DNA of 64,000 bases from a virus (lineage: Duplodnaviria > Caudoviricetes): positions 96,001 through 160,000 of the IMG/VR virus record IMGVR_UViG_3300013947_000022; one strand, given 5' to 3'. The notes under the pieces are model-generated. The model was not told the origin of the DNA. It did not search any database and saw only the letters and a program-made list of their open reading frames with translations. This document shows, piece after piece, positions 9,232 to 10,504 of this stretch (position 1 is its first letter; the number at the start of each line of letters is the position of its first letter). The position numbers were made by a program, and so were the translations under genes.

Positions 9232-9360
9232 TCGACTCTAACAGCAATTTTTCATAATATTCTAACAAAAGAAGCAAACTATGGTTCGATTCCACAATCC
9301 TTTCCCTGAGAGGATTAGTCAAGTGGATAAGACGGCTTCATGAATTATTAATGAGTCGAG
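9232..9360 (+). ncRNA. Y-RNA-like ncRNA 1 with circularly permuted tRNA domain
   Basis: TCGACTC/GAGTCGA stem + ACAGCAA; inside GAAGC, T arm TGG-TTCGATT-CCA, closed acceptor ATCCTTTC/GAGAGGAT, D arm GTC-AAGTGGATAA-GAC, GCTTC. Confidence 0.8.
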
Positions 9361-9614
9361 AACAAAAACAAAAAAAGTTAAAAGCCTCTTGACAAATGAA
9401 AATCAAGATGGTATAATGAGCACATAAAGAAATAAAAAACTTGTTTTATTTAGCAAGAGTGATTCTTTTAGTTCCCTAAAACGTGGTATGCCAATCACAT
9501 TCAATCTTGCTATCTAAATAGGTAGAAGAACCTACTGCGTTTCTTGTTAGTACGCTCCTATTCTGAGCTGGAACACTTGAAAACCAGTAGAGTTCCTAAA
9601 CCGAAATTCCATTT

Positions 9615-9736
9615 GCGCCTGTAACTCAGTGGTAGAGTAGCGGCCTTGGATAATAGCGTTTAGGCTTTAGCAAGTGCGAGACTTGCATTATCCCTTAAGC
9701 CGTCTGTCATGGGTTCGAATCCCATCAGGCGCACCA
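9615..9736 (+). tRNA. tRNA-Lys(TTT, or CTT in an alternative register) interrupted in the anticodon loop by a mini-tRNA (9648-9694)
   Basis: GCGCCTG/CAGGCGC acceptor, GCGGC/GCCGT anticodon stem, TTCGAAT, ACCA; removing the insert gives loop CT-TTT-AA. Confidence 0.85.
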
Positions 9737-9853: not shown

Positions 9854-10504
9854 ATGTTAAAGCCAGAAGAAAAAATCATTCTTGACCTTTGTGGCGGTAC
9901 TGGTTCATGGTCTCGTCCTTGGCAGTTAAATGGGTATGATGTTCGTATCATTACTCTTCCTGAATATGATGTAAGGACTTTTAATCCTCCTGAGAATGTT
10001 TGGGGCATTCTTGCTGCTCCACCTTGCACAGAATTTAGCAATCTAAACTGTATCGCTGAGAATCGTCATCGTGACTTTGATGCTGGTATGGAAATTGTTA
10101 ATGCGTGTTTGCGTATTATCAAAGAGTGTAATCCTGTTTGGTGGGCTTTGGAAAACCCTCGTGGACATTTGCGTGATTTCCTCGGAACTCCTACTATGAC
10201 TTTCCAGCCTTGGGAATATGGAGACCCTTGGACTAAGGCTACGGATATTTGGGGTACTTTTAATATTCCTCCAAAAAAGTATTCTCGTTGGGAAGATGTG
10301 CCTAATAAGATTCCTCTGTATACTCGCAAGGGTAGAAACAAGCCCAATTTTGCTTTTCTTCATAAGTCTGCTTGGAAGAATATTCCTCAACTTAGTTGGC
10401 ATCATCAACCTGAAACAGATGCGGAATTTAGAGCAATGACTCCTCCTGCATTTGCATGGGCATTCTATGAAGCTAATAAACTGAAAGTTTATGAGGGTAA
10501 TTAA
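9854..10504 (+). CDS. short C5-cytosine DNA methyltransferase-like protein
   Basis: LDLCGGTG, AAPPCTEFS, WALENP motifs. Confidence 0.8.
   Translation: MLKPEEKIILDLCGGTGSWSRPWQLNGYDVRIITLPEYDVRTFNPPENVWGILAAPPCTEFSNLNCIAENRHRDFDAGMEIVNACLRIIKECNPVWWALENPRGHLRDFLGTPTMTFQPWEYGDPWTKATDIWGTFNIPPKKYSRWEDVPNKIPLYTRKGRNKPNFAFLHKSAWKNIPQLSWHHQPETDAEFRAMTPPAFAWAFYEANKLKVYEGN

Follow-up and report, generated by a model that had tools for sequence, protein, structure and literature searches.

A tRNA-shaped insert in the anticodon loop of a phage tRNA-Lys gene, its junctions, and a possible splicing route through tRNA end-processing enzymes and a phage RNA ligase

The tRNA-Lys gene described here lies at positions 9615-9736 of a 64,000-nucleotide (nt) stretch of phage DNA (the window), which covers bases 96001-160000 of an IMG/VR virus record (G000) that is 215,374 bp long and has a G+C content of 34%. 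It is a tRNA gene whose anticodon loop is enlarged by 47 bases (9648-9694): the two strands of its anticodon stem, GCGGC (9640-9644) and GCCGT (9699-9703), stand 54 bases apart, 47 beyond what the loop needs. The Rfam tRNA model (RF00005) matches 9615-9733 with 60.4 bits (threshold 29), covering model positions 1-71 and passing over the insert as a local gap. In its default mode ARAGORN misses the gene, reporting it only when introns are allowed; three of the six tRNAs here are missed in the default run. Removal of the 47 bases leaves a product with the identity features of tRNA-Lys(UUU), namely UUU in a 7-nt loop, U33, A37 and A73 (the discriminator, A9733, which is followed by an encoded CCA at 9734-9736). 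This is the sole Lys tRNA gene that ARAGORN detects in the phage, in which AAA is used more often than AAG (2702 vs. 1672 codons).

The insert forms a compact structure that resembles the top half of a tRNA (Table 1). Seven consecutive Watson-Crick pairs, GGATAAT with ATTATCC, start flush with its first base, an arrangement expected by chance at about (1/4)^7. This acceptor-like stem is stacked on the 5-bp stem of a T-like hairpin, which abuts the 3′ strand of the closing stem without a spacer, as at positions 65/66 of a tRNA. There is no anticodon arm, and a 1-nt discriminator completes the element. According to RNAfold, the minimum free energy (MFE) and centroid structures of the insert are identical and correspond to this description (-15.1 kcal/mol, 68% of the ensemble, z = -2.69), with 3 of 200 shuffled sequences folding as well. 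In the 122-nt precursor, the outer cloverleaf and the inner Y-shape are predicted to coexist (-44.2 kcal/mol, z = -3.2, 0 of 200 shuffles). The first-pass annotation of this DNA had named a 7-bp acceptor, a tiny D hairpin (AGC-GTTTAG-GCT), a T arm (GCAAG-TGCGAGA-CTTGC) and a discriminator C without CCA, and all four are recovered in the fold, the two hairpins in the MFE and centroid structures alike. Hairpins of the form GCAAG-TGCRAGN-CTTGC also make up the T arm of ordinary tRNAs in L016, L037, L053, L055, L083, L088, L097, L111 and L115; the loose hairpin scan behind this list returns mostly chance matches and shows the hairpin as a true T arm elsewhere. This T-arm variant, with G at the U55 position, is unusual and is common to the insert and to ARAGORN-called tRNAs of unrelated viral contigs.

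Related phages were obtained through the methyltransferase gene just downstream of tRNA-Lys (9854-10504), whose protein in phages G001, G002 and G003 is 97, 95 and 94% identical, respectively, to that of G000. G001 has the same tRNA-Lys carrying the same 47 bases. Upstream of the same methyltransferase gene, G002 (L128:1998-2074) and G003 (L129:2255-2331) have an intron-less tRNA-Lys(UUU) with the loop CUUUUAA, GCGCC at acceptor pairs 1-5, discriminator A and CCA. When all eight ways of taking out 47 bases are enumerated, only the removal of 9648-9694 restores the loop CUUUUAA, and the same register is the only one of the eight that pairs the first seven bases consecutively with the seven that precede a 1-nt tail. 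Because a single register both restores this loop and starts on the first base of the stem, the comparison with orthologues makes the anticodon UUU and places the intron between positions 34 and 35. The first-pass annotation had considered the register ambiguous between UUU and CUU, both of them Lys; lysine stands and the ambiguity does not, since the Lys(CUU) register has only three pairs and the orthologues have UUU. Forcing the intron position in ARAGORN gives a tRNA-Pro(UGG), which was rejected as well: its register has only five terminal pairs, and after splicing the tRNA body can be aligned with the intron-less tRNA-Lys(UUU) genes.

The exons were aligned as sequences spliced in silico from the four phages. 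Between G000 and G001 they differ by five substitutions and one indel, i.e., at 6 of ~75 sites; D-stem pair 10-25 changes from A-U to G-C, which is compensatory, and acceptor pair 2-71 changes from C-G to U-G. When G002 and G003 are included, 20 of the 21 cloverleaf pairs are kept, many of them through double changes, and the single broken pair, in the D stem of G003, stands beside an indel and looks like a misalignment. Given the compensatory exon changes, the detection of only one tRNA-Lys gene and the predominance of AAA, the exons appear to be under tRNA constraint, and the gene seems to behave as a functional tRNA gene that must lose its insert. The intron is identical in G000 and G001 at 47 of 47 positions, an outcome with a chance of ~0.02 under the exon rate. 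It is single-copy in the G000 genome. Exact-pattern scans of IMG/VR with the intron (2.9 million viral contigs) and with the 3′ exon found no copy beyond G001, a metagenome scan returned only the same phage again (ERZ808277), and megablast and blastn searches against GenBank phages gave no match.

Further tRNA genes of this phage clade contain inserts of comparable design, in tRNA-Leu, tRNA-Gln, tRNA-Glu and tRNA-Ile, with a Gln(UUG) intron of 120-122 nt in G000, G002 and G003. For the N-CCA-ended introns of these four types, the register with seven consecutive terminal pairs from the first base is the one that ends in N-CCA, and it yields an anticodon suited to the tRNA body in a 7-nt loop with U33 and A37. 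tRNA-Gln of G000 has one more register with seven pairs, but G002 and G003 share only the one that ends in N-CCA. The acceptor-like stem of the G002 Gln intron has Watson-Crick pairs in place of two wobbles. The junctions coincide with the inner +1 and the inner discriminator or CCA in 7 of the 8 precursors examined, and the insertion points in the clade are 32/33, 34/35, 35/36 and 36/37. As these points vary, the junctions are set by the inner structure and not by a fixed position in the loop.

The sister introns share with the 47-nt insert a 7-bp acceptor-like stem that starts at the first base and a T arm that abuts its 3′ strand. The stem GCAAG/CTTGC recurs in the T arm of two other introns, that of tRNA-Gln (14908-14924) and that of tRNA-Ile in the sister phages, and this Ile intron (57 nt), like the 47-nt insert, is devoid of an anticodon arm. 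In contrast to the four sister types, which are 57-122 nt long and end in N-CCA, the insert in tRNA-Lys has no CCA; it also differs in its D-like hairpin, whose stem has 3 bp, in a variable linker of 3 nt and in lacking a 2-nt spacer behind the acceptor stem. No member of the set is smaller, and no other well-formed one lacks CCA, which fits a cut directly after the discriminator. The Ile intron is missing from the tRNA-Ile of the window (15518-15593), and this patchiness suggests that closely related phages have gained and lost introns.

RNase P and RNase Z recognise the coaxial acceptor/T stack and the elbow of a tRNA, and a 12-bp acceptor/T stack with a T-loop is the minimal unit for both. 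RNase P leaves a 3′-OH on the leader and RNase Z a 5′-phosphate on the trailer, and T4 Rnl1 acts preferentially on nicks of this kind (3′-OH/5′-phosphate) within anticodon loops. With 47 nt, the insert is within the size range of the smallest natural tRNAs, the armless mitochondrial ones. We give about an even chance to the reading that it is a tRNA-shaped intron which RNase P and RNase Z excise, after which the Rnl1 ligase of the phage seals the exons. The outer cloverleaf and the inner mini-tRNA of the precursor would fold independently. Host RNase P would cut 5′ of G9648 and leave a 3′-OH on exon 1 (...C32 U33 U34), and an RNase Z-type enzyme would cut after C9694 and leave a 5′-phosphate on exon 2 (U35 U36 A37 A38...). 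The two tRNA halves would be held together through the outer stems, and the resulting anticodon-loop nick, a natural substrate of T4 Rnl1-type ligases, would be sealed by the phage Rnl1 with no need for end-healing.

The sequence establishes the anatomy of the insert, its exact junctions, the intact exons and the presence of a ligase gene; the cutting nucleases, and the splicing itself, we infer, with support from features of the substrate. For RNase P these are the 7 + 5 bp stack, U9647 at -1 and G9648 at +1 paired with C9693, U and G being the bases that the enzyme prefers at these positions; in the predicted fold, three unpaired bases (9645-9647) precede +1. For RNase Z acting on a CCA-less precursor, C9694 is followed by U9695 U A A and not by C74. 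RNase Z cuts such precursors after N73, and C74 is its chief anti-determinant (PMC3161902).

The phage encodes the ligase. A gene for an Rnl1-family enzyme at G000:78117-79502 (PF09511, 43.6-45.6 bits, cut-off 28.3; match to phrog_562) has intact motifs I (KMDG, for KxDG), IV (EGWV, for EGxV) and V (KIK, for KxK). The protein has no match among PDB sequences at E <= 0.01, and a tRNA-specific C-terminal domain is thus putative. It adjoins a polynucleotide-kinase-like (PNK-like) gene related to the kinase domain of Clostridium thermocellum Pnkp. The PNK-like gene, the Rnl1-type ligase gene and a dUTPase gene occupy G000:77155-79972 (L124:251-3070), outside the window, where they are adjacent on one strand with overlapping ends and likely form an operon. 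Neither RtcB nor a CCA-adding enzyme was found in the phage, and the search for an EndA splicing endonuclease (PF01974) was also negative. Rnl1 is present in all four intron-bearing phages and missing from two phages whose tRNAs have no such inserts. This co-occurrence is a weak point, because the four phages form one clade and the sample is small and non-independent.

Several observations weigh against the RNase P/RNase Z/Rnl1 route. Ligase and kinase together make up the classical module for repairing anticodon-nuclease damage; as it is expected in a large phage with or without introns, its presence is permissive and not diagnostic. The insert scanned alone (9646-9697) matches none of 4227 Rfam families at E <= 10, tRNA included, and its T-loop has G where U55 normally stands. 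Because no Rfam family matches, "tRNA-shaped" is a statement about architecture, and the insert is not a tRNA by any model; the minimal inner tRNA of the first-pass annotation therefore survives as a top-half architecture without an anticodon arm, and not as a recognisable tRNA. All known copies of the intron (in G001 and in the same phage from a second metagenome) are identical, so its inner fold has no covariation. The 5′ leader is base-paired from -4, in the anticodon stem, which may hinder RNase P. One sister, the 71-nt Leu intron of G002, is the exception to the junction rule, with 5 of 7 terminal positions paired (two in a row from the end) and a 1-nt tail.

The 3′ cut presents a further difficulty. 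Most sister introns end in CCA and would need a cut after it. Bacillus-type RNase Z does not cut CCA-ended RNAs (PMC3161902); cleavage after CCA is known for Thermotoga RNase Z and for RNase E on E. coli proline tRNAs (PMC3161902, PMC5291269). One enzyme pair is thus not obviously enough for the whole family, and the family, possibly with the 47-nt insert, may use another 3′ nuclease. Furthermore, in the related introns of Lak megaphages, a 5′ hairpin and an A-rich leader occupy ~26-31 nt before the inner tRNA (PMC6784885 Table S6, by eye). With such a leader in front of the inner tRNA, RNase P cannot set the 5′ splice site there.

The same difficulties would suit a true intron that is cut by other nucleases, either a phage β-CASP RNase or an endonuclease that recognises the mini-tRNA shape, the ends then being healed if needed by the phage polynucleotide kinase/phosphatase and sealed by Rnl1. 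A β-CASP metallo-β-lactamase RNase is indeed encoded at G000:25201-26646 (L172:1402-2847), outside the window (PF10996, 63 bits), with matches to Thermus TTHA0252 and CPSF73 at E ~1e-31, and the kinase-like gene stands beside the ligase. The post-CCA cut that CCA-ended sister introns need is not made by standard RNase Z (PMC3161902), and the 5′ end of the Lak introns is not flush with their inner tRNA. However, the β-CASP RNase has no link to tRNAs and lies ~80 kb from the tRNA cluster, and junctions exactly at +1 and at the discriminator or CCA are the known products of RNase P and of tRNA 3′-end nucleases. We regard this variant as possible but unlikely.

Retention of the insert is a different matter. 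The 122-nt RNA could serve in another role, either as a regulatory RNA or as a decoy to which anticodon nucleases or defence proteins that bind tRNA are drawn, or the gene could be a recently inactivated tRNA gene. The classical target of the anticodon nuclease PrrC is tRNA-Lys, this phage has the matching repair module, and the insert is more conserved than the exons. Either seems quite unlikely, though, for a gene whose exons keep every cloverleaf pair between G000 and G001 via compensatory changes, which is the only tRNA-Lys gene found in a phage with AAA as the commoner Lys codon, and whose place is taken in the sister phages by an intact tRNA-Lys(UUU). Moreover, in five tRNA species the removal of the insert always leaves a 7-nt loop with U33 and A37, which would be needless if the insert were kept.

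Perfect 7-bp inverted termini and presence or absence among close relatives could also describe a palindromic insertion at the DNA level, of the kind seen in miniature inverted-repeat transposable elements (MITE-like), with a coincidental tRNA look. This is improbable: between the flanks CUU and UUAA, which together give the orthologue loop CUUUUAA, there is no target-site duplication; the element is single-copy in the genome and, G001 aside, in the 2.9 million viral contigs; and its T-arm hairpin also occurs in CCA-ended sister introns, the ends of which form no palindrome. A conventional tRNA intron (self-splicing group I, small self-cleaving ribozyme or bulge-helix-bulge) is highly improbable, even though group I introns occur in bacterial and phage tRNA anticodon loops and a group-I-like element lies 6 kb away (15775-15975, 34.8 bits), because the 47-nt insert matches no Rfam family, Intron_gpI included, at E <= 10, has no 3-nt bulge/4-bp helix/3-nt bulge (a 3 x 5 internal loop, flanked by helices of 5 and 7 bp, contains both junctions) and is inserted at 34/35 and not at 37/38, in a phage without EndA.

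The only published relatives are the tRNA introns of Lak megaphages, which received a passing note (PMC6784885). They were called enigmatic, one of them was said to be such that it "may encode a tRNA", and no mechanism was proposed (Devoto et al., 2019, PMC6784885). Like the insert in tRNA-Lys, they are short anticodon-loop inserts free of open reading frames, with a 7-bp acceptor-like stem and a T arm; their 3′ junction is at or next to the inner discriminator and they have no CCA; the intron is identical across phages in which the exons or the rest of the genome differ; and TAG is recoded in these phages (PMC6784885), as it probably is in G000. The Lak introns differ in length (79-114 nt) and in position, near 37/38, whereas the insert described here has 47 nt, lies at 34/35, has no anticodon arm and is flush at both ends. 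In full-text searches of the literature, no paper was found that proposes or tests a mechanism for tRNA-shaped introns, and a 2026 jumbo-phage review is silent on them.

Group I introns, e.g., the cyanobacterial tRNA-Leu(UAA) intron, have in common with these inserts variable insertion points in the anticodon loop and a patchy occurrence among close relatives. They are, however, ribozymes of at least 200 nt with a conserved catalytic core (P3-P9), whereas the insert has 47 nt and no ribozyme signature. Archaeal and eukaryal introns of the EndA/Sen type are closer to the proposed RNase P/RNase Z/Rnl1 route in that splicing is protein-dependent and consists of two cuts followed by ligation of halves held by the mature domain. 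In addition, yeast Trl1 resembles T4 Rnl1 plus Pnk, and the phage ligase and kinase are homologous in kind to the Trl1 domains. In contrast to EndA/Sen splicing, which gives a cyclic phosphate and a 5′-OH, the expected ends here are 3′-OH and 5′-phosphate; the insert has no bulge-helix-bulge and is not at 37/38, and the phage has no splicing endonuclease.

Two further systems supply parts of the comparison. Minihelix or top-half model substrates of RNase P and RNase Z are free-standing or synthetic, whereas this one is embedded in an anticodon loop and the useful product would be its flanks. The repair of PrrC damage by T4 Pnkp and Rnl1 likewise concerns a tRNA-Lys that is broken in its anticodon loop while its halves stay together, and the same phage ligase family. 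It differs in that the break, made by a host defence nuclease at 33/34, needs end-healing, whereas removal of the insert at 34/35 would need none.

Large phages may possess a third kind of tRNA splicing, besides group I and EndA/Sen, in which the intron is a minimal RNase P/RNase Z substrate and a repair ligase joins the exons; we hold this general claim tentatively, at somewhat less than an even chance. If it is true, tRNA introns in bacteria and phages need not be ribozymes, and an insert of this kind could be removed by enzymes that every cell has, so that an Rnl1-type ligase would be enough for any phage to tolerate such an insert or to make use of it. Phage RNA-repair ligases would acquire a second role, and the maturation of tRNA-Lys could depend on the ligase of the phage itself. 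The "enigmatic" Lak introns, and the under-count of tRNAs in large phages by standard finders, would be explained. The 47-nt CCA-less element would then be the minimal natural example. Among elements of a kind that has hardly been described, it is the minimal form, without CCA and flush at both ends, and it is the smallest and simplest test substrate of the set.

Table 1. Features of the tRNA-Lys gene and its insert, the upstream candidate promoter, and tRNA-shaped introns of the phage clade. Positions without prefix refer to the window.
Feature	Position	Strand	Basis or remark
5′ exon of tRNA-Lys(UUU): acceptor 5′ strand, D arm, anticodon stem 5′ strand, C32 U33 U34	9615..9647	+	Rfam tRNA; exon alignment
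47-nt tRNA-shaped intron (top-half mimic), between anticodon positions 34 and 35	9648..9694	+	fold; register; G001 identity
Acceptor-like stem, 5′ strand GGATAAT; G9648 = putative +1 for RNase P, U9647 = -1	9648..9654	+	7 Watson-Crick pairs with 9687-9693
D-like mini hairpin AGC-GTTTAG-GCT (3-bp stem, 6-nt loop)	9655..9666	+	MFE and centroid
T-arm-like hairpin GCAAG-TGCGAGA-CTTGC	9670..9686	+	fold (MFE and centroid)
Acceptor-like stem, 3′ strand ATTATCC	9687..9693	+	pairing with 9648-9654
Unpaired C, discriminator position, last intron base; next base U9695, no CCA	9694..9694	+	register test and orthologue loop
3′ exon of tRNA-Lys(UUU): U35 U36 A37 A38, anticodon stem 3′ strand, variable loop, T arm, acceptor 3′ strand	9695..9736	+	
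Candidate sigma-70-type promoter (TTGACA, 17 nt, TATAAT, TG before -10)	9389..9417	+	12/12 consensus match
tRNA-Leu(CAA) intron, 65 nt, G000	11886-11950, gene 11834-12006		tRNA-shaped, N-CCA end, flush with inner +1
tRNA-Gln(UUG) intron, 122 nt in G000	14814-14935, gene 14780-14977		tRNA-shaped, N-CCA end, flush with inner +1
tRNA-Glu(UUC) intron, 58 nt, position 36/37, G003	L160:1501-1630 (= L170:3961-4090)		
tRNA-Ile(UAU) intron, 57 nt, position 32/33, G001 and G003	L170:13918-14048 / L168:4701-4831(-)		
CCA-less tRNA-Leu intron, 71 nt	G002		

Reading through TAG raises the coding capacity of the whole G000 genome from 153 to 191 kb (frames of at least 150 codons). Three frames, of 2707 (7 TAG), 1665 (10 TAG) and 1032 codons, are open only when TAG is read through, which fits TAG recoding in part of the genome. 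The long TAG-dependent frames sit mainly at ~1.5-90 kb of G000.

The RAGATH-33 motif (137-138 bits) occurs just 3′ of the methyltransferase gene in sister phages (L127:3879-3991, L128:4064-4176 and L129:3879-3991), and RAGATH-18 (73 bits) occurs in one of them (L170:1303-1375); neither reaches its gathering score within the window. The group-I-like match at 15775-15975 is below the gathering score of 50, and a tRNA-like sequence consisting of a T arm and acceptor follows directly downstream, near 16000-16045. At 12090-12161 there is a weak match to YrlA, a Y-RNA-like family (28.1 bits; 33-36 bits in the sister phages). By eye, this region looks like a circularly permuted tRNA, in which the T arm and the 3′ strand of the acceptor come first and, after a short loop, the 5′ strand of the acceptor and the D arm follow. 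A gene for Ro60/TROVE was not found in the phage.

The promoter listed in Table 1, a candidate by consensus match only, is ~200 nt upstream of tRNA-Lys. The motif TCGACNCNNACAGYAA is found in seven copies on the + strand of the window, at 9232, 9763, 11345, 12043, 14993, 15449 and 15622, where 0.08 would be expected by chance. For the five copies inspected, the complementary GTCGAG lies 60-140 nt downstream, so that pairing would produce a long hairpin in each case. In flanking the tRNA genes, the copies resemble a recurrent module for processing or regulation.

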